A DNA stretch of 64,000 bases, taken from positions 11,430 to 75,429 of the forward strand of contig JBARQV010000015.1 of the NCBI GenBank assembly GCA_049643885.1, given 5' to 3'. Both the position numbers and the translations under genes were made by a program. Source of the stretch: Candidatus Omnitrophota bacterium (lineage in GTDB: Bacteria; Omnitrophota; Gorgyraeia; Tantalellales; Tantalellaceae). Under the pieces are notes generated by a model. The model worked only from the letters and a program-made list of their open reading frames with translations, searched no databases and had not been told where the DNA came from. Numbering within the stretch: the stretch's first letter is position 1; the number at the start of each line of letters is the position of its first letter. Below are positions 2,563 through 28,643 of this stretch, piece after piece.

Positions 2563-3953
2563 GTTTCGCTCTTTCTCTTTTATCGATCGAGATAGTCGGC
2601 ATGTTCTTCATATTCCTGGCGGTCAGGCCTAGCCGGCAGGAATATTCCTGCCTTGAATTTGTCTGCCTGTCATTCCTTGTGGGGATGGCTTTTACGTCAT
2701 ATCAACTATTCCTGTATTATGTCCTCGGGATAGATTTCAACCTGCTGAACATCCTCATCGTTCCGGGAATACTGCTCCTTATTATTTTTTCCCGCTATGC
2801 TTCGAAACCGGAAAGGCTAAAGGAGTTTCTCCCCGCGGTCGGTTACCGTTTGAAATGGGATCTTACTAAACGGTTCCTGGCGGCCGGCATCCTGGTGCAG
2901 ATCTTGTGGGTGCTCTTCCTGGTGATACCCACGCCGGTGTATTCCCATGACGCGGTAGCCAACTACGCGCTCAAGGCCAAGATCTTTTATTTCCTCGGCG
3001 GCGTGCCGGAAGGTTTTTTCAACTGGAGCGAATCCACGGTAGCGCACCCCGATTATCCGCTTCTCTTGCCTTTTCTGATGACATGGATATACGCCTTCAC
3101 GGGTTTCAACGACCTGGTGGTGAACTTGGTCATGCCGGTCATCTATCTTAGCTTCCTGGGGCTGTTTTATTCCCAGGCAAAAAAGATCTTTTCCGGGGCT
3201 TACGCGCTGCTTCTGACGTTTTTTATCGCTACCGTGCCGCAGGTCGCCGATTACGCTACGGTTATCCACGCGGACCTGATTTTGACGGCGGTGGTCACAG
3301 GGGCCTTTTTGTATTTTTTCCTCTATATCCGGAATATGAGCAAAGTGGACCTAGTGCTGTCGTCTATTTTGATCGGCTCTTCATTATGGGTCAAGAACGA
3401 GGCGATCGTTTTCGCCGGAGCCTTACTGGCGGTATTCGCTGCCTTTGTGCTTAGATCCGGCCCGGCCGATAAAAGACGCTTGATTTCGGGTCTGTTTCTG
3501 TTTATCATTATCGCGGCCGTTATTTCAGCTCCCTGGCTCGCGACTAAAGCGTTAAATCACGCGGCGAACAGTGATATTGATATTTCCAGGATGACACCGG
3601 ACCGGTTATTGCAAAATGTTAAAGATATTCCGGTCCTGCTTAATCTTTTCCAGCAGGAAGTATTCGGTCCGAAGAAATGGAATATTCTCTGGATGATCCT
3701 TCTGGCTGCCGTTATCTGGAAAAGGAAAGACGTCTGGCGGGGCGAAAATTTTTACACGACACTTTTCATCATCCTTGCGGCCTCGGGCTATTTTGCCGGA
3801 TACATGGCAACTACGGGAAATAACCTGTATTTCTATGTCAATACTACGATCTCCAGGTTCATGCTGCATTTTTCGGGTTTGGCGCTTTTTCTCACTGCCA
3901 GCCTGATCTACGGCGATGTCAGAGAGGTACCAAGCTTTAAAGAAGGGAGCTGA
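2559..3953 (+). CDS. Polytopic integral membrane protein, possibly a GT-C type glycosyltransferase or polymerase of the glycan cluster
   Basis: 464 aa with at least 11 hydrophobic segments. ATGA overlap with the upstream gene. Function inferred from context only. Confidence 0.5.
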   Translation: MSFALSLLSIEIVGMFFIFLAVRPSRQEYSCLEFVCLSFLVGMAFTSYQLFLYYVLGIDFNLLNILIVPGILLLIIFSRYASKPERLKEFLPAVGYRLKWDLTKRFLAAGILVQILWVLFLVIPTPVYSHDAVANYALKAKIFYFLGGVPEGFFNWSESTVAHPDYPLLLPFLMTWIYAFTGFNDLVVNLVMPVIYLSFLGLFYSQAKKIFSGAYALLLTFFIATVPQVADYATVIHADLILTAVVTGAFLYFFLYIRNMSKVDLVLSSILIGSSLWVKNEAIVFAGALLAVFAAFVLRSGPADKRRLISGLFLFIIIAAVISAPWLATKALNHAANSDIDISRMTPDRLLQNVKDIPVLLNLFQQEVFGPKKWNILWMILLAAVIWKRKDVWRGENFYTTLFIILAASGYFAGYMATTGNNLYFYVNTTISRFMLHFSGLALFLTASLIYGDVREVPSFKEGS

Positions 3954-6867: not shown

Positions 6868-8868
6868 ATGACTAAAGAGTATCAATACGTTGAAGTAATA
6901 ACGAGCTTGCCGATCGACCGCACCTTCCAGTACCGGGTAACGGGCAGGGAAAGCCATCCGCCCGCTATCGGTAAAAGGGTGTATATACCGTTCCGCAGCA
7001 AAAAACGCATCGGGTATATTGTGAAGATCGAGGCCGATCCCGTGGTCAAGGACCCCAAACCCCTTATAGACATCATCGATGACGAGCCGATCTTCTCGGA
7101 GGAGATGATGGATCTGGCCAGGTGGCTCAAGGACAGGTATTTTTGTTCATGGGGTGAGGCGCTTGAAGCCATGATACCCGGGGTATTGAAACACGGTCAG
7201 GTCTCCTCCGTTTCCAGGGTCCAGGAGAAGCGGAAGAAGGTCGAAAGGGTGAACCCCCACACGCCTAATGCCGAACAGAAAAAGGTCCTGGACGACATCA
7301 ACAAATGCCTTGATGCGGGAAAACACGAGGTTTTTCTTCTTCATGGCATCACCGGAAGCGGTAAGACCGAGATATACCTCCAGGCCATGGAAAGTGTCAT
7401 AGCCAAGGGCAGATCCGGGATCATGCTTGTCCCGGAGATATCTCTCACCCCGCAGACGGTGGAAAGGTTCCAGTCGAGGTTCGGCAGTAAAGTCGCTGTT
7501 TTTCATTCCAGGATGCTGCAGAGCGCCAAGTTCAAGGAATGGAAAAGGATCAAGGAAGGCAAGGCCAGGGTCGTGGTAGGTCCCCGGTCTGCCGTCTTCA
7601 GCCCTTTCAAAGACCCGGGCATATTTATCGTCGACGAAGAACACGAACCAAGTTATAAGCAGGATGATGTTCCAAGATACCATGCCAGGGACTTTGCCAT
7701 AGAGAGGGCGCGGAGGGCTTCTGTCCCTGTAATACTCGGCAGTGCCACGCCTTCTTTGGAGTCGTACCATAAGGCAATGACAGGTGAATACCGTTTGGTA
7801 GAACTTACCCAGAGGATCAAGGAAAAAGAACTGCCCAAGGTCAAGCTGGTAGACATGAGGATGGAGTTCGGTACCAGGTCAGGGAGACAGGTGATCTCTC
7901 GTGTGATGGAGGACGTGCTTCGCAAGGACCTTGCTAAAAAACAGCAGGTCCTGGTATTCCTTAACAGGAGGGGGTTTTCCACGTTTGTCAGTTGCCGAAA
8001 GTGCGGATACGTAATAAAATGCGATAAATGTGACTCGCCTCTGGTGTTCCACAAGGAGAAGGACGCGCTCATATGCCATTACTGTAACCGGAGGATACCG
8101 CCGGCGAAGATCTGTCCCGCCTGCAACGGCGATTACTTGATGTATAAAGGGACCGGGACACAGAGGGTGGAGTCGGAGATCAGGAAGATATTCCCCGATG
8201 TCCGGATCGCCCGGATGGATTCTGATACCATGGGCAAAAGAGGTTCGCACGAAAGGGTCCTGGGCCAGTTCAAGGAACATCAGATAGATGTCATCGTCGG
8301 GACGCAGATGATCGCCAAGGGATTGGATTTCCCCAGGGTCACGCTGGTCGGGGTGATATCCGCCGACGCGAACCTGAACCTTCCGGATTTCAGGTCCGGA
8401 GAAAGGACGTTCAACCTTATTACCCAGGTCGCCGGGAGGGCCGGGCGCGGGGATCTTGGCGGTGAAGTGATCGTCCAGACTTTTACCCCGGAGCATTATG
8501 CCGTCAGTTTCGCCGCAAAGCATGATTATCACGGTTTTTATGACCGTGAGATAATATCCAGGAGGGAGCTCCTTTTTCCGCCTTTCATGCACCTGGTAAA
8601 GTTGACTTTAAGGGGCAGAAAAGAAGAGAACGTGGTCAAAAGCGCCGAGAAGCTGGCTGAACGCCTCAGGAAGAAGATCCCCGGTATAGACATCCTCGGT
8701 CCGGCACCGTCGCCGATGTTGAAACTCAGAGGATACTACAGGTGGAACGTAATAGTAAAGACAAGGGACAGGGACGGGGTGATAAAAAAGTTTCGTGAAG
8801 TGTTAAAGGGTTTCCGCAAAGGGACAGGTGTTTTCCTCGCGGTGGACGTGGATCCTATTACGATGTAG
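6868..8868 (+). CDS. priA: Primosomal protein N' (replication restart helicase)
   Basis: Walker A GITGSGKTE, DEEHE box, Cys4 zinc finger CRKCGYVIKCDKCDSPLVFH...CHYCN. Confidence 0.95.
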   Translation: MTKEYQYVEVITSLPIDRTFQYRVTGRESHPPAIGKRVYIPFRSKKRIGYIVKIEADPVVKDPKPLIDIIDDEPIFSEEMMDLARWLKDRYFCSWGEALEAMIPGVLKHGQVSSVSRVQEKRKKVERVNPHTPNAEQKKVLDDINKCLDAGKHEVFLLHGITGSGKTEIYLQAMESVIAKGRSGIMLVPEISLTPQTVERFQSRFGSKVAVFHSRMLQSAKFKEWKRIKEGKARVVVGPRSAVFSPFKDPGIFIVDEEHEPSYKQDDVPRYHARDFAIERARRASVPVILGSATPSLESYHKAMTGEYRLVELTQRIKEKELPKVKLVDMRMEFGTRSGRQVISRVMEDVLRKDLAKKQQVLVFLNRRGFSTFVSCRKCGYVIKCDKCDSPLVFHKEKDALICHYCNRRIPPAKICPACNGDYLMYKGTGTQRVESEIRKIFPDVRIARMDSDTMGKRGSHERVLGQFKEHQIDVIVGTQMIAKGLDFPRVTLVGVISADANLNLPDFRSGERTFNLITQVAGRAGRGDLGGEVIVQTFTPEHYAVSFAAKHDYHGFYDREIISRRELLFPPFMHLVKLTLRGRKEENVVKSAEKLAERLRKKIPGIDILGPAPSPMLKLRGYYRWNVIVKTRDRDGVIKKFREVLKGFRKGTGVFLAVDVDPITM

Positions 8869-14514: not shown

Positions 14515-16155
14515 GTGTTGGATCCGGAAAAAAGAAAAATCGCATTTAAAAGATCACTGTTTATCCCGAAAGCAGTGGTCTTTTTTTTGTTCCTTTTTCT
14601 GACTGTTACGCCGGATCCGGCCCAGGAAGTCTGGACGAGCCGGGACGCGTACGTAAGCGCCGGGATAGGTGATGCCCGGATACTTGTGCCTTTTCTCGCC
14701 GATGATGTATCTTCAGGCTCGGTATGCGGACTTATCTTTAACGGCCTGACCAAGGTCGATAAGGACCTGAAAGTGGTGGGGGACCTTGCCGAAAGTTGGG
14801 ACGTCTTGGATGGAGGCCTTACCATAACCTTTCATTTGAGAAAAGGCGTCAAGTGGCACGATGGCGCGCCTTTTACCGCCGAAGATGTCCGTTTTACCTA
14901 TGAGACCATACTTGATCCCGGGACGGGGTGCCCGTATATTTCGAGTTATTCAAGCATTAAAACAATAACGGTTATCGATCCCTACACTATCCGTTTTGAT
15001 TATAACCGGCCTTATGCACCTGCCATCCTTAAGTTTGGAATGGGTATTGTCCCTAAACATCTATTTGAGAAGGCCGGGGATGTCAGGAAGTCGGCTTATG
15101 CCATAGCCCCGGTCGGCACCGGTCCTTACAGGTTTACCAGGTGGGAGAGAGGCCGGTACATTATCCTGGAAGAAAACCCCGAATATTTTGAACACCGCCC
15201 GGGGATCAAGCACTACATCTACAGGCTTATTCCCGACCAGGCGGTCCAGTTCCTTGAACTGGTTTCGGGAGGCGTCGATTCCATGTCCCTGAACCCATAC
15301 CAGTACCGCTATCGCAGTGAAACGTCTGAATTCAGGGAAAGGATACGCAAGTACCATTATCTTGCCCATTCCTATACCTATATAGGATATAACCTGAAGG
15401 ATCCCTTTTTTGCCGACAAAAAGGTCCGGCAAGCTTTGAGCTACGCTATAAACAAGAAGGAAATAATAAACGCGGTTCTTCTTGGGCTTGGGGAATCCTG
15501 TACAGGGCCTTTCTTGAAAGGGTCGCTTTACTATGATGATTCCGTCCCGGGGTATGCCTATGACCCGGATAAGGCCGCGCGGCTCCTGCGTGAAGCGGGA
15601 TGGGAGGACACGGACGGAGACGGGATACTTGAAAAAGAGGGACAAGAATTCAAAGTCACCTTGGTGACAAATCAGGGGAATCAGGTCAGGGAGGACATAG
15701 CTACAGTGGTCCAGGATCAATGGGCAAAGCTGGGCATCAAGGTCGAGATCAATGTGATCGCCTGGGCGGCGTTTTTGGACCAGTTCGTGAACAAAAAGAA
15801 GTTTCAGGCTATGATACTGGGGTGGACCATCCCCCTGGACCCCGATCCTTACTCGGTCTGGCATTCAGATTCCATGCGGCCCGGCGGGCTGAATTTCATT
15901 TCTTATTCCAATCCGAAAGTAGATGAGCTGATAGTGCTCGGCCGGGAAGAATTCGCCCCGGCGGTCAGGCGAGAGATCTATCACGAGATCCACAGGGTCA
16001 TATCGGAAGATGCGCCGTACACTTTTTTATTTTTTCCTTATGCCACGCCGGCGATCGATAAACGCTTCAAAGGGATAATACCCGCACCGGCCGGCATAGG
16101 GTATAATTTTATCGACTGGTACGTGCCGGAGGACGAGGTAAAGTATAAATTTTAG
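14515..16155 (+). CDS. oppA: ABC transporter substrate-binding protein, family 5 (oligopeptide/dipeptide)
   Basis: 546 aa with an N-terminal hydrophobic signal. SBP_bac_5 architecture, followed by permeases and ATPases. Confidence 0.85.
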   Translation: MLDPEKRKIAFKRSLFIPKAVVFFLFLFLTVTPDPAQEVWTSRDAYVSAGIGDARILVPFLADDVSSGSVCGLIFNGLTKVDKDLKVVGDLAESWDVLDGGLTITFHLRKGVKWHDGAPFTAEDVRFTYETILDPGTGCPYISSYSSIKTITVIDPYTIRFDYNRPYAPAILKFGMGIVPKHLFEKAGDVRKSAYAIAPVGTGPYRFTRWERGRYIILEENPEYFEHRPGIKHYIYRLIPDQAVQFLELVSGGVDSMSLNPYQYRYRSETSEFRERIRKYHYLAHSYTYIGYNLKDPFFADKKVRQALSYAINKKEIINAVLLGLGESCTGPFLKGSLYYDDSVPGYAYDPDKAARLLREAGWEDTDGDGILEKEGQEFKVTLVTNQGNQVREDIATVVQDQWAKLGIKVEINVIAWAAFLDQFVNKKKFQAMILGWTIPLDPDPYSVWHSDSMRPGGLNFISYSNPKVDELIVLGREEFAPAVRREIYHEIHRVISEDAPYTFLFFPYATPAIDKRFKGIIPAPAGIGYNFIDWYVPEDEVKYKF

Positions 16156-24664: not shown

Positions 24665-25405
24665 ATGCGCAACATAAAGCTTACCATTTCTTACGACGGG
24701 ACCGATTTTAACGGTTGGCAGGTCCAGCCTAACGGCAGGACAGTCCAGGAAGAGGTAGAAAAAGCGATCGGCAAAGTTTTCGGCAAGCCTCACCGTTTAT
24801 ACGCGGCCAGCCGGACAGATGCCGGTGTCCATGCCGAAAGACAAGTCGCGAATTTCAAGACCGGTCTTTCTTCGACCATACCCACTGGCAAGATACCTGC
24901 CGCGTTGAACGCTTATCTTCCCGATGAGGTAGCCATAAAAAGTGCCGAGGAAGTCCCGCCGGGATTCCATTCCCGTTTTGACGCGAAAAGCAAGCATTAC
25001 AGGTATTACATTATCAACAGCAGGCAGCGCGACCCTTTCGGTGAAAAATACACCTGGCGGGTGCCGTATGAACTTGATGTCTCTTTGATGAAAAAAGAAG
25101 CGAAAGTGCTCGTAGGCAGGCATGATTTCAAGTCTTTCCAGGCTAAAGACAAAAGAGAAAGGCATTCCGTGCGCAGGATATTCTATATCAACGTGGCGAA
25201 AAAAAAGTCGTTCCTGACGATAGACATTGAAGCTGACGGTTTTCTTTTTAATATGGTCCGCAACATCATGGGTACCCTGGTGGATATCGGCAGGGGATAC
25301 CTTCCCGGGGGAAGCATGCGGAGCATACTCAAGAAAAAGGACCGGACCCAGGCCGGCCCCACCGCTCCCCCTAAAGGCCTTTTTCTTGTCGATGTAAAAT
25401 ATTGA
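24665..25405 (+). CDS. truA: tRNA pseudouridine(38-40) synthase
   Basis: MRNIKLTISYDGTDFNGWQVQ...RTDAGVHA (catalytic Asp). The track start at 24389 reads through the asd 3' end and the repeat. Confidence 0.9.
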   Translation: MRNIKLTISYDGTDFNGWQVQPNGRTVQEEVEKAIGKVFGKPHRLYAASRTDAGVHAERQVANFKTGLSSTIPTGKIPAALNAYLPDEVAIKSAEEVPPGFHSRFDAKSKHYRYYIINSRQRDPFGEKYTWRVPYELDVSLMKKEAKVLVGRHDFKSFQAKDKRERHSVRRIFYINVAKKKSFLTIDIEADGFLFNMVRNIMGTLVDIGRGYLPGGSMRSILKKKDRTQAGPTAPPKGLFLVDVKY

Positions 25406-25483
25406 TTTTTTTATTTTCCCCTCTTGACAAGTATACATACTTATAATAAACTTGTATCATACTTGTTAAACAGGAGCTTTTCA

Positions 25484-25654
25484 ATGAAGAGGAAGTACCG
25501 TTTCAGGTTTTTTGCCACAGTTTCGGACAGGGGCCAGATATTCATTCCCAAGGTCCTGCAAGAGTATTTTAGTATCCGCAGGCGGGACAAGGTGGAGTTT
25601 GAAATAACCGATGATGGGAAGGTCATTTTCAAGAAAAAGGAGGGAGAAGAATGA
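25484..25654 (+). CDS. 56-aa AbrB/MazE/SpoVT-fold (swapped-hairpin) protein, first of three coupled mini-genes
   Basis: TVSDRGQIFIPKVLQEYFSIRRRDKVEFEITDDGKVIFKK aligns with AbrB KVDELGRVVIPIELRRTLGIAEKDALEIYVDDEKIILKK. SD AGGAG is 7 nt upstream. Ends KKKEGEE*. Confidence 0.7.
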   Translation: MKRKYRFRFFATVSDRGQIFIPKVLQEYFSIRRRDKVEFEITDDGKVIFKKKEGEE

Positions 25655-25803
25655 GGCGAAAGAAAAAGAAGCACCTTCATAAGGTGTCGATCCCAGAAGC
25701 GTTAGAAAACAGGTTCGGGAGTTACAACCGAAAGAAAATCCAATTTCTTGTGACTTCGGACGGAGATATTCTCATGCGGAAGAAGAAGGAGGGGAGAAGA
25801 TGA
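25651..25803 (+). CDS. 50-aa paralog of the AbrB-fold mini-protein, second of three
   Basis: The ATGA overlaps the upstream stop. SD AAGGAGGG lies within the upstream coding sequence. KVSIPEALENRF...KKIQFLVTSDGDILMRKKKEGRR parallels ORF-a. Confidence 0.6.
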   Translation: MRRKKKKHLHKVSIPEALENRFGSYNRKKIQFLVTSDGDILMRKKKEGRR

Positions 25804-25970
25804 AAAAGGGACATGTACACAAAGTTACGATCAACGAAAAACGCCGCACGAACAAAAAGCGCAATGATCTTTTGAGGAAGGGCGTATCCACCGACAGCCT
25901 CCAGGCAACATTTAATAATTATTACCGGGGCCCGCTCAAAGCGCTGTACAAGAGGATCATGAAGGGGTAA
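25800..25970 (+). CDS. 56-aa basic mini-protein, third of three; shares the HxHKV(S/T)I N-terminus with the second
   Basis: ATGA overlap with the second mini-gene. SD AAGGAGGGG. MKKGHVHKVTINEKRRTNKK... has a divergent C-terminus. Confidence 0.5.
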   Translation: MKKGHVHKVTINEKRRTNKKRNDLLRKGVSTDSLQATFNNYYRGPLKALYKRIMKG

Positions 25971-25983
25971 ATAAGGATTATCC

Positions 25984-26012
25984 TTGACAAAAATCCCCAA
26001 ATATGTTAATTT
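25984..26012 (+). promoter_or_regulatory. Promoter TTGACA-N17-(TGt)TAATTT upstream of rplM
   Basis: Read directly. Extended -10 arrangement TGnTAATTT, as upstream of the Na/Pi transporter gene. Confidence 0.45.
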
Positions 26013-26065
26013 TACTCCTCTAAAAGTTAATGCTCTCGCTGTAAGTAGCGACATAGAGGAGAATT

Positions 26066-26497
26066 ATGAAAACAACCAGGTTGAAAAAGCATCAGGAAGC
26101 TACGCATGACTGGTACGTTGTCGACGTGATGGGCAAGGTTCTCGGCAGGGCAGCTACAGAGATAGCATCGTTACTGAAAGGGAAGAACAGGGTAGATTTT
26201 ACGCCTCATGTTGACAGCGGTTCGGGAGTAATAGTCCTGAACTGTGACAAGCTGAGGGTTACCGGAAAGAAGGGGCTCCAAAAAGTATATAAACGATATT
26301 CGGGTTATCCCAGCGGGCAGAAGGAAACCGCTCACAAGAAAATGATGGAGAAAGACCCCAAATACGTGATCAGGCATGCGGTAAAGGGGATGCTTCCAAA
26401 GAGCAAGCTTGGAGCAAGGATGCTCAAACGTTTAAAATTGTATACGGGCGACACCCATCCCCACGCCGCCCAGTTGCCGAAGGAAAAGAAAATATAA
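26066..26497 (+). CDS. rplM: 50S ribosomal protein L13
   Basis: WYVVDVMGKVLGRAATEIASLLKGK. Confidence 0.95.
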   Translation: MKTTRLKKHQEATHDWYVVDVMGKVLGRAATEIASLLKGKNRVDFTPHVDSGSGVIVLNCDKLRVTGKKGLQKVYKRYSGYPSGQKETAHKKMMEKDPKYVIRHAVKGMLPKSKLGARMLKRLKLYTGDTHPHAAQLPKEKKI

Positions 26498-26515
26498 GGA
26501 AGAGGTATCCGTAAG

Positions 26516-26917
26516 ATGGTGGAGACAAAGCAGGCATATTTCGCAGCTACCGGGAGAAGAAAGGAATCCGTTGCTAGGGTCAGGATCAAGCCCGGGGACG
26601 GTAAGGTAAGAGTCAACAAGAGACAAATCGAGGATTATTTCCCCAGGGAGTCGCACCGGATCACAATAATGCAGCCCCTGAAGACGGTCGGAATGGTGGG
26701 AAAATTCGATCTTTACGCGAATCTTACCGGAGGCGGGTTGAGCGGCCAGGCGGGGGCTTTCAGGCACGGTATCGCCAGGGCTCTTCTTGAATACGACGAA
26801 AATCTACGGAGCACCTTGAAAAAAGCGGGTTTTCTAACGCGTGATCCAAGAGCCAAAGAAAGGAAGAAATACGGACAAAAACGGGCCAGAAAGCATTTCC
26901 AATTCTCAAAACGTTAA
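26516..26917 (+). CDS. rpsI: 30S ribosomal protein S9
   Basis: [12 protein letters not shown]...[19 protein letters not shown]...[17 protein letters not shown]. Confidence 0.95.
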
Positions 26918-26949
26918 ACACGAAATTACATTTTTTAACTTTAGTAGAA

Positions 26950-26978
26950 GGTCGCTTAAAAAGCGGCCTTTTTTATTT
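26950..26978 (+). terminator. Rho-independent terminator after rpsI
   Basis: GGTCGC-TTAAAAA-GCGGCC followed by TTTTTTATTT. Confidence 0.7.
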
Positions 26979-27015
26979 GAGGAGCACGCGACGGGATTAC
27001 CTTGCATCTTCTAGT

Positions 27016-27492
27016 TGCAAAAACAGTAAAATCTTTCCCAACCAAATTTTTTAACGGCATTTTTCTAACTTTCAAAGGGCGTAAAAGAAACTCGCCCCCG
27101 CTGCTTTGCTTTGCGAATCCAAGCGACGGGGGTTCAAACAACTTTTACGCTTTTTTCCTTCAAAAGTTAGAAAAATGCCTAAAATTTGTAAATGGGGCCC
27201 TTTAATTTTATTGTTTTTGCGAATAGATGAGCAGTTTCTTAACTATGATTATTTTCAAACACATGGCAAATGTCACCGCCGGCGAATATATGCCTGACGG
27301 ACCATTTCAAAAATTTAGTTTTTCCGGGCATTTTAAGCTGAAGTTGTCGTGGCTACTAAACATGTGTAGGCATGGCAAATGTCCGAGCCCCGAGTATTTC
27401 TATTAACGAGGGGCGAGTTTTGCCATGTCAGTTTAAAATGTCCCGAAAAGCGTTAAGAATTTTTGTCGGGCCGGAAGGCATATATCCGCCGG
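27016..27492 (+). repeat. Composite structured repeat, copy B: ~205-bp near-palindromic arm module (27016-27220) plus ~210-bp core (27283-27492) with inverted termini CCGGCGAATATATGCC / GGCATATATCCGCCGG
   Basis: Aligned by eye to copies A and C. The reading frame that is open in copy A is closed here by TAA. Confidence 0.85.
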
Positions 27493-27543
27493 TCTACTGT
27501 CACGCGACTTATGTTCGCTTCGCTTCATAAGTTACGGTTTCAC

Positions 27544-27573
27544 TTGACAGGGTAGGGCTGTTTACTTTATACT
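27544..27573 (+). promoter_or_regulatory. Promoter TTGACA-N18-TATACT upstream of argC
   Basis: Read directly. About 50 nt upstream of the start codon. Confidence 0.5.
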
Positions 27574-27626
27574 CTGTTCTTATATTAATTTTGCCCGTAA
27601 AGTAATATATTAATACATAAGGAGAA

Positions 27627-28643
27627 ATGATGATAAAAGTCGGAGTAGTGGGAGCGACAGGGTATACCGGCGAAGAACTGGTAGACACTCTTTTAAGAAA
27701 TCCCGGTGTGGAGATCACTTCCTTGACGGCTCTTGTGGAGAAAGAGGCAGAGTTTTCCGAGCTGTATCCGAAGTTCGGAAAAAAGATCTCGATAGTCTGC
27801 AAAAATCTCGATATGGAAGAGGTTTCCGCGAAAAGTGACCTGGTTTTTCTGGCCCTTCCTCACACGGTTTCCATGAAATTCGCGCCGGAGTTCCTTAAAA
27901 AGGGGAAGAAGGTCATAGACTTGAGCGCTGATTATCGCCTGCCGTGCGATATTTATGAAAAATGGTACAAGGCGAAGCACGCGGATAAGGAAAACCTTTC
28001 GCAGGCTGTTTACGGTCTGCCGGAGATGAACCGTGAGAAGATCAAAAAAGCCGGACTGGTAGCGAATCCGGGCTGCTATCCGACGAGTGTTATTCTGGCC
28101 CTTTTGCCGATCATAAAGGCCGTCCGTGAATCCGGACAACCCATCGTGGTGGACTCAAAGAGCGGGGCGACCGGCGCCGGGAGAAAGGCATCCGTGTTTT
28201 TATCGTTCGGTGAGGTGGATGAGAATCTAAAGTGCTACAAGGCCAACGAGCACCAGCACATGCCGGAGATGGACCACGTGTTGAGTGAAGCCGCCGGAGG
28301 GGAAGTCCGGGTGAACTTTACACCGCATCTTCTGCCGGTGAGGAGGGGAATATTGTCGACGATCTATATCCCCGATAAGGGCCTCCCGTCCACGGGCGAG
28401 ATATTACGGATGTATAACGATTATTACAAAGACGAGCCATTTGTGCGTGTCCATGATTCCGGGTACATGCCCCAGCTCCTGGACGTGGCGGGGACTAATT
28501 TCTGCGATATCGGGATAAAGTCTGCCAGAGGGCTCTTGATCATAGTTTCCGTTATAGATAATCTCCTGAAAGGGGCAAGCGGGCAGGCCGTCCAGAACAT
28601 GAATATCATGCTGGGGGAGGAAGAAACAGCGGGTCTTTTATGA
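27627..28643 (+). CDS. argC: N-acetyl-gamma-glutamyl-phosphate reductase
   Basis: VGVVGATGYTGEEL; NPGCYPTS active-site cysteine. Confidence 0.9.
   Translation: MMIKVGVVGATGYTGEELVDTLLRNPGVEITSLTALVEKEAEFSELYPKFGKKISIVCKNLDMEEVSAKSDLVFLALPHTVSMKFAPEFLKKGKKVIDLSADYRLPCDIYEKWYKAKHADKENLSQAVYGLPEMNREKIKKAGLVANPGCYPTSVILALLPIIKAVRESGQPIVVDSKSGATGAGRKASVFLSFGEVDENLKCYKANEHQHMPEMDHVLSEAAGGEVRVNFTPHLLPVRRGILSTIYIPDKGLPSTGEILRMYNDYYKDEPFVRVHDSGYMPQLLDVAGTNFCDIGIKSARGLLIIVSVIDNLLKGASGQAVQNMNIMLGEEETAGLL

Follow-up and report, generated by a model that had tools for sequence, protein, structure and literature searches.

An uncharacterised AbrB-type mini-operon with a new partner family in Omnitrophota

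AbrB-type swapped-hairpin DNA-binding domains are found in the regulators AbrB, Abh and SpoVT, in the antitoxins MazE, PrlF (SohA) and AbrB-type VapB, and in MraZ, which heads the dcw cluster. Here we compare with these systems a mini-operon of three tiny overlapping open reading frames, ORF1, ORF2 and ORF3, located between truA and rplM in a 64,000-nucleotide (nt) stretch of DNA (hereafter the window) from a Candidatus Omnitrophota bacterium (metagenome-assembled genome GCA_049643885.1, contig JBARQV010000015.1, positions 11,430 to 75,429). Coordinates are those of the window and refer to its + strand unless stated otherwise. Omnitrophota are uncultivated and often ultra-small, and gene regulation in this phylum is, to our knowledge, almost unexplored. 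A literature search retrieved no paper linking Omnitrophota with AbrB or with a module of ORF1 and ORF3. We conclude that the module represents a variant of the AbrB-type autoregulated mini-operon that is specific to Omnitrophota, has not been characterised before and includes a novel partner family.

The alignment of ORF1 with the N-terminal domains of AbrB, Abh and SpoVT (PDB 1Z0R, 2RO3, 2RO5 and 2W1T) spans the entire domain, some 50 residues long, from strand 1 through strand 2 (G-x-(I/V)-x-IP) and the helix to strands 3 and 4. Unlike these regulators, ORF1 lacks a C-terminal multimerisation or sensor domain and is paired with a dedicated basic mini-protein. AbrB binding sites are loosely defined, whereas the putative operator of ORF1 is a sharply defined array of hexamers. 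The MazE, PrlF and VapB antitoxin systems have the same gene order and the same placement of the operator over the promoter, but ORF1 has no toxin-binding tail and no recognisable toxin beside it, both proteins of the pair are basic, and the module is apparently vertical and syntenic across the phylum, with no mobile copies found.

ORF1 shares with MraZ its place at the head of a housekeeping gene cluster, and both are conserved members of the AbrB superfamily, in the case of ORF1 with apparently vertical inheritance. MraZ is reported to bind an array of direct repeats, spaced by roughly a helical turn, at its own promoter (PMC12957436). It is a single chain of two half-domains that forms large rings, whereas ORF1 is a single domain of 56 amino acids (aa); MraZ also has no ORF3-like partner, the hexamer of the ORF1 operon differs in sequence from that of MraZ, and no sequence match between ORF1 and MraZ was seen in Pfam and NCBIfam scans. 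The best PDB sequence match to ORF1 is PhS018 of Pyrococcus horikoshii (2GLW), a single-chain double swapped-hairpin protein. PhS018 illustrates that there is more than one way to put two AbrB halves together, a point that bears on a possible pairing of ORF1 with ORF2; its halves are a fused tandem repeat, whereas those considered here are encoded by separate genes, of which ORF2 is truncated and chimeric.

Locus architecture and conservation

ORF1 (25484-25654, 56 aa), ORF2 (25651-25803, 50 aa) and ORF3 (25800-25970, 56 aa) follow truA, which ends at 25405, and precede rplM (26066-26497). Each gene lies in a different frame, -1 relative to the one before it, and both junctions are ATGA overlaps (25651-25654 and 25800-25803). 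The Shine-Dalgarno (SD) sequence of ORF1, AGGAG, occupies 25472-25476, 7 nt ahead of its ATG. Those of ORF2 (AAGGAGGG, 25637-25644, 6 nt ahead of the start) and ORF3 (AAGGAGGGG, 25786-25794, 5 nt ahead) are embedded in the K-E-G codons of ORF1 and ORF2, respectively. The arrangement agrees in coordinates, frames, junctions and SD positions with the original prediction, a reading made from the bare sequence, and its proposal that the three genes are translationally coupled is supported. As it also stated, all three products are basic, with net charges of +5 (ORF1), +12 (ORF2) and +13 (ORF3).

The three overlapping genes are real and under purifying selection. The 487-bp segment that holds them is identical across 14 independent contigs of the window species, and all three are called as genes in NCBI, ENA and Logan assemblies. 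The nearest distinct relative, lineage L017 (ribosomal protein L13 89.5% identical), preserves all three frames intact at unchanged length, with no insertions or deletions relative to the window. The ratio of non-synonymous to synonymous rates (dN/dS) against L017 is 0.04 for ORF1, 0.13 for ORF2 and 0.10 for ORF3, compared with 0.05 for rplM, and when synonymous and non-synonymous changes are contrasted in Fisher tests, p is 9e-5 for ORF2 and 1.5e-7 for ORF3. No credible RNA element was found in an Rfam scan of 25300-27700.

Gene-neighbourhood comparison replaces the predicted three-gene array with a different conserved unit: the ORF1+ORF3 pair is ancestral, and ORF2 is a later gain. ORF1 followed by ORF3 occurs in at least 10 divergent lineages (L015/L016, L020, L021, L023, L024, L025, L026, L028, L030 and L032-34), where the two genes overlap by 1-29 nt and the SD of ORF3 lies inside the ORF1 tail; every coupled lineage retains the SD, the start codon and an ORF1 stop that overlaps this start or lies shortly before it. 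The trio was found only in the window species and L017, whose ORF2 products are 82% identical, while L015 and L032 (L13 78-80% identical) have the pair. The usual gene order is leuB-asd-truA-[pair]-rplM-rpsI-argC-argJ, and ORF3 stands immediately 5' of rplM-rpsI, with no terminator between, in 10 of 13 distinct lineages; it does not in two (L024 and L030), and the contig of L023 ends too early. In L024 the pair sits among rpoD, dtd and pfk, and in L023 the upstream context differs. The most divergent lineage, L031 (Omnitrophica metagenome-assembled genome GCA_015231715.1, L13 58% identical), has ORF3 without ORF1 between truA and rplM; its ORF3 homologue (2923-3177 of that contig) stands alone behind an intact CAAGTA-N4-TACTTG-N5-TACTTG promoter. 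As judged from homologue distribution and synteny, the operon appears to be restricted to the phylum Omnitrophota and vertically inherited.

Within the window the trio or pair is present once. A second copy at 8580-8751 (- strand) was considered on weak tblastn matches (E 0.003 to 1) and rejected; the matches lie antisense within priA without an ORF and are therefore due to chance.

In L019 and L022 an unrelated 68-aa gene is inserted between ORF1 and ORF3. This gene belongs to a third tiny-gene family (RYxTVIxxxCxxxDEDxAxxTAGEYLRGN, 51-68 aa), seen in L019 (2730-2936), L022 (223-429) and L025 (2819-2974). Its position in the operon varies by lineage, being first in L025, the L019 form has a hydrophobic tail, and database searches returned no family match for it. 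Mini-genes seem to use the operon as a landing pad.

The three gene products

On profile matches and predicted fold, ORF1 is a minimal AbrB/SpoVT swapped-hairpin domain, as the original prediction had held. It matches Pfam PF15937 PrlF_antitoxin (E 3e-7, 30.9 bits, cut-off 32), PF04014 MazE_antitoxin (E 5e-4, 20.4 bits, cut-off 24.7) and TIGR01439, the AbrB looped-hinge-helix family (E 1.2e-6, 28.1 bits, cut-off 28.3), with every score slightly under the curated cut-off, and its orthologues carry precomputed PF15937 matches. PDB sequence matches are 2GLW (best, E 2e-5 to 6e-5), SpoVT (3.5e-4 to 6e-4), AbrB (0.07) and Abh. The profile match extends over about 45 residues, and the AlphaFold 2 (AF2) model, with a predicted local distance difference test score (pLDDT) of 82, reproduces the strand and helix topology (strand 7-12, helix 23-28, strands 36-41 and 47-51), strand 2 of the AbrB topology being unassigned in this monomer model. 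The best Foldseek match of the model is SpoVT 2w1t, with a probability of 0.93 but an E value of 0.38.

ORF1 is a bare domain without a C-terminal extension. It ends 4-6 residues past the last strand, and its final codons (KKKEGEE) double as the SD of the next gene. Most orthologues likewise end within about 6 residues of strand 4, and a minority are 10-15 residues longer (69 aa in L019, 64 aa in L026). The family comprises more than 130 clusters (90% identity) of 52-74 aa that are 64-82% identical; those clusters that carry a name are all from Omnitrophota, many being unnamed. Across the clusters ATVSDRGQIFIPK, in the region of the DNA-binding hairpin, is nearly invariant.

ORF3 is encoded at the other end of the operon and has no match in Pfam, NCBIfam, PADLOC or the PDB, nor any fold match. 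When 1.84 billion representative proteins were searched exhaustively by profile, about 20 clusters of 56-83 aa emerged, nearly all of 56-68 aa, and every member with an organism name belongs to Omnitrophota. The family shares the pattern H-K-V-T-I-N, then RRxNKKxxD, then VFNxYYRDQVxALYRxV, and all members checked have a net charge of +7 to +14. AF2 predicts an all-helical protein (predicted template modelling score, pTM, 0.36). Its N-terminus is floppy, residues 10-26 (NEKRRTNKKRNDLL) form a basic helix, and the C-terminal part, 31-55, is an amphipathic pair of helices (VFNxYYRxxxKALYRxV). Neither sequence nor fold gives any sign of an AbrB/MazE/SpoVT domain. Since it lacks database matches and has a conserved Omnitrophota family of its own, ORF3 is best described, from the profile searches and the model, as a new family and not as an AbrB paralogue.

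ORF2 combines parts of both neighbours. Its residues 13-48 match positions 20-55 (of 57) of the ORF1-family profile, with E 4e-11 for the window protein and 8e-14 for that of L017, a stretch that corresponds to strand 2, the helix, strands 3-4 and the tail; by BLAST the identity to ORF1 is 41% over 37 aa (E 1e-8). Residues 1-14 instead resemble the N-terminus of ORF3 (KKxH[LV]HKV[ST]I): KKKKHLHKVSI of ORF2 matches KK(G/R)H(V/L)HKVTI of ORF3 in 8 of 12 positions by BLAST (E 4e-4), a score that composition-preserving shuffles reached in 1-3 of 20000 trials. This N-terminus takes the place of profile positions 1-19, so that strand 1 and the SDRGQ loop, and with them a complete AbrB domain with its DNA-contact loop, are missing. 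No match to ORF2 was found in Pfam or NCBIfam. In amino-acid sequence ORF2 is therefore chimeric, joining the N-terminus of ORF3 to the C-terminal two-thirds of ORF1. The original prediction of a tandem duplicate of ORF1 stands in part: ORF2 is a paralogue that keeps the KKKEG-stop/SD/ATGA junction, but its N-terminus is ORF3-like and its AbrB domain incomplete.

An out-of-frame tandem duplication of 149 nt would produce, and so explains, this make-up. The junction-to-junction period (25800-25651) is 149 nt, which is 2 mod 3 and fits the need for an in-frame fusion across a -1 overlap. The duplicated segment would have spanned the 3' two-thirds of ORF1, the junction and the 5' end of ORF3, joining the ORF3 N-terminus in frame to the C-terminal part of ORF1 and remaking a second SD/ATGA junction, presumably in the ancestor of the window species and L017. 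ORF2 would then be a clean natural case of mini-gene birth by frame-shifting tandem duplication. Its product would retain the dimerisation half of the AbrB fold without strand 1 and the DNA-contact loop; its most plausible role is that of a modulator which pairs with ORF1 but makes no normal contact with DNA.

Operator and proposed regulation

A sigma-70-type promoter lies ahead of ORF1 at 25424-25452, with a -35 box TTGACA (25424-25429), a 17-nt spacer and a -10 box TAAACT (25447-25452), scoring 10/12 against the consensus in our scan. A TTGACA-17-TATACT promoter precedes the homologous operon in every relative examined. Over it lies the putative operator (25428-25465), which consists of the hexamers CAAGTA (25428), TACTTA (25438), AACTTG (25449) and TACTTG (25460). 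These are spaced 10, 11 and 11 nt, in helical phase, and overlap the -35 box, the spacer, the -10 box and the transcription start region.

The window copy has one mismatch to the palindrome CAAGTA-N4-TACTTG. In every lineage examined the operon promoter reads TTGA-CAAGTA-N4-TACTTG-N5-TACTTG, and the relatives often have an additional one or two TACTTG units, set at intervals of 11 nt. Arrays of 3-5 hexamers in 10/11-nt phase were found in L015, L019, L021, L023-L026, L028 and L030-L032, the hexamers being invariant and the flanking bases variable. The exact 16-nt palindrome occurs once per locus in 12 relatives, always at the operon promoter, and is retained in L023 and L024, where the gene context is different, and in L031, which lacks ORF1. 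A palindrome search of the window found only the operon's own site. The one-turn spacing of hexamers over the -35 box, spacer and -10 box is, as a sequence pattern, a classic repressor-operator layout, and by analogy it resembles the repeat arrays of the MraZ type.

The 8-mer ATACTTGT has 7 copies in the window, counting both strands, versus about 1 expected under a first-order Markov model; those on the + strand are at 14680, 18099, 21761, 43389 and 57687. A wider regulon based on this 8-mer was considered and rejected, the other six copies being isolated, inside coding regions and not in promoter arrays.

We favour, at a probability of roughly 0.55, the view that the operon encodes a self-repressed minimal AbrB regulator together with a co-produced basic helical effector or co-factor, that transcription likely reads through into rplM-rpsI, and that ORF2 acts as a modulator. 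ORF1 would bind the hexamer array as a dimer or higher multimer; because the array overlaps the sigma-70 promoter, it would repress its own operon, as MraZ, MazE and AbrB do theirs. ORF3, a very basic three-helix mini-protein, would be made in a fixed ratio to ORF1 through the ATGA/SD coupling and would constitute the output of the operon, presumably as a nucleic-acid-binding effector or co-factor and not as a toxin. A terminator scan of the + strand over 25300-26150 found none, hence none between ORF3 and rplM, and transcription from the mini-operon therefore probably also runs into rplM-rpsI.

Several points limit this view or weigh against it. That ORF1 is the hexamer binder is inferred from its fold and from the way its hairpin loop and the operator stay invariant together. 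L031 keeps the operator and ORF3 without a cis ORF1, and therefore either ORF1 acts there in trans or another protein, possibly ORF3, reads the operator. The description of ORF3 as nucleic-acid-binding derives from its charge and helix pattern, since its predicted fold is weak. For ORF2, selection is read from a single pairwise comparison, that with L017. Its substitutions by codon position are 8, 5 and 9, without a third-position excess, because many synonymous changes are first-position changes in Arg and Leu codons; the coding status of ORF2 therefore draws on this one comparison together with frame integrity, on which basis it is well supported. Finally, when the C-terminal part of ORF2 is compared with ORF1 orthologues, the ORF1 of its own lineage ranks 65th of 120, ORF2 resembling the family consensus more closely than it resembles that ORF1. 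Either the ORF2 copy or ORF1 has therefore diverged quickly, and the donor of the duplication, as well as its date beyond its having preceded the split between the window species and L017, is uncertain.

The pairing of ORF1, which ranks among the most conserved small proteins of Omnitrophota, with an unannotated ORF3 family and a testable putative operator provides an entry point to transcriptional control in Omnitrophota. If the module is ordinary, it is another small AbrB-type regulator with a partner of obscure role. A bolder version, tentative and on the whole unlikely, is that ORF3 founds an Omnitrophota-specific class of small basic nucleic-acid-binding proteins that is either gated by the AbrB repressor or itself the reader of the operator. 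In that event ORF3 would be a candidate ribosome-associated or ribosomal-protein-operon-linked factor, the module a piece of core regulatory machinery that defines the lineage, as opposed to a selfish toxin-antitoxin element, and ORF2 an example of out-of-frame tandem duplication creating a functional mini-gene with its coupling preserved.

Alternative readings and the downstream region

A ribosome-linked role of ORF3 is possible, suggested mainly by gene position. In its strict form, in which ORF3 is a ribosome- or rRNA-associated basic protein (ribosomal-protein-like, or a hibernation or assembly factor) and ORF1 a mere transcriptional gatekeeper, we regard it as quite unlikely. It draws on the terminator-free adjacency of ORF3 to rplM-rpsI in 10 of the 13 lineages, on the retention of this position upstream of rplM in L031 even without ORF1, and on the very basic, small and extended-helical character of ORF3, shared with many ribosomal proteins; the two lineages in which ORF3 stands elsewhere depart from that position.

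A classical type II toxin-antitoxin system, with ORF1 as antitoxin and autorepressor, ORF3 as a miniature toxin and ORF2 as a spare or decoy antitoxin, is decidedly unlikely. The architecture would fit, with the DNA-binding gene first, a coupled partner and an operator over the promoter; the PrlF and MazE antitoxins are the best family matches of ORF1, a PHROG antitoxin family matches as well (4e-5), and some databases name ORF1 orthologues 'PrlF family antitoxin'. However, the four features looked for, namely a toxin fold, an antitoxin tail, mobility and charge complementarity, were all absent. ORF3 resembles no known toxin, either in family or in fold (MazF, PIN/VapC, YhaV, RelE/ParE, Doc, HicA and others), and no toxin of normal size adjoins the locus, as had been noted originally. 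ORF1 ends so soon after the AbrB domain that it has no toxin-neutralising tail, and both partners are net positive. The distribution is phylum-wide, syntenic and apparently vertical, not patchy; searches found no plasmid or phage copies of the pair or of ORF3 homologues, and L031 carries ORF3 without a cis antitoxin. The finding corrects these database labels, which suggest a toxin-antitoxin system unsupported by the evidence.

The original prediction had taken all three genes for co-translated AbrB-fold paralogues, which could act as hetero-oligomeric swapped-hairpin regulators. This is very unlikely. The helix and strands 2-4 of the AbrB domain are common to ORF1 and ORF2, so that an ORF1/ORF2 heterodimer is conceivable, and the HxHKV(S/T)I block is common to ORF2 and ORF3. 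That block is not a mark of shared AbrB ancestry, because the chimeric ORF2 carries it as part of its ORF3-like N-terminus. Against common descent of all three, ORF3 is predicted to be all-helical and does not resemble the ORF1 family in profile comparison (hhalign probability 0.3%), strand 1 and the conserved SDRGQ loop are missing from ORF2, and most lineages have ORF1 and ORF3 only.

Programmed -1 frameshifting, or decay of a single gene for a split PrlF/AbrB-like protein of about 110 aa, can be dismissed: a G-AAA-AAG run does lie 12 nt ahead of the ORF1 stop with the -1 frame open into ORF2, and AbrB, PrlF and MazE do consist of an N-terminal hairpin and a C-terminal domain of similar combined size, but the slippery run is not conserved (AAG-AAG-AAG in L015 and L032) whereas the SD/start/stop arrangement is, the ORF1 clusters (more than 130) and the ORF3 clusters (about 20) include no fused homologue, being all 52-83 aa long, ORF3 has no match to the C-terminal half of the PrlF model, and the locus is not a frameshifted pseudogene, the refutation that the original prediction had allowed for, because relatives keep separate overlapping genes.

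Downstream of the mini-operon, rplM-rpsI has a separate promoter with an extended -10 box at 25984-26012 (TTGACA at 25984-25989, N17, TAATTT, with TGT before the -10). Its hexamers are conserved and its spacer is variable between relatives; the promoter is nearly invariant over lineages in which L13 is 58-90% identical, the sole exception seen being TGC in L026. The rplM 5' leader (26012-26062, + strand) forms a hairpin, with CUCCUCU base-paired to the SD of rplM, AGAGGAG (-16.6 kcal/mol, z -3.1). This pairing is kept in L017 and only in part in L015, and the leader has no Rfam match; judged from the predicted pairing, the hairpin may represent a leader for translational autoregulation of the L13 type. 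Between rpsI and argC the gap (26917-27627) measures 710 nt, versus only about 170-280 nt in relatives. No convincing ORF, tRNA or Rfam match was found in it, and a terminator-like hairpin is present at about 26949-26980.

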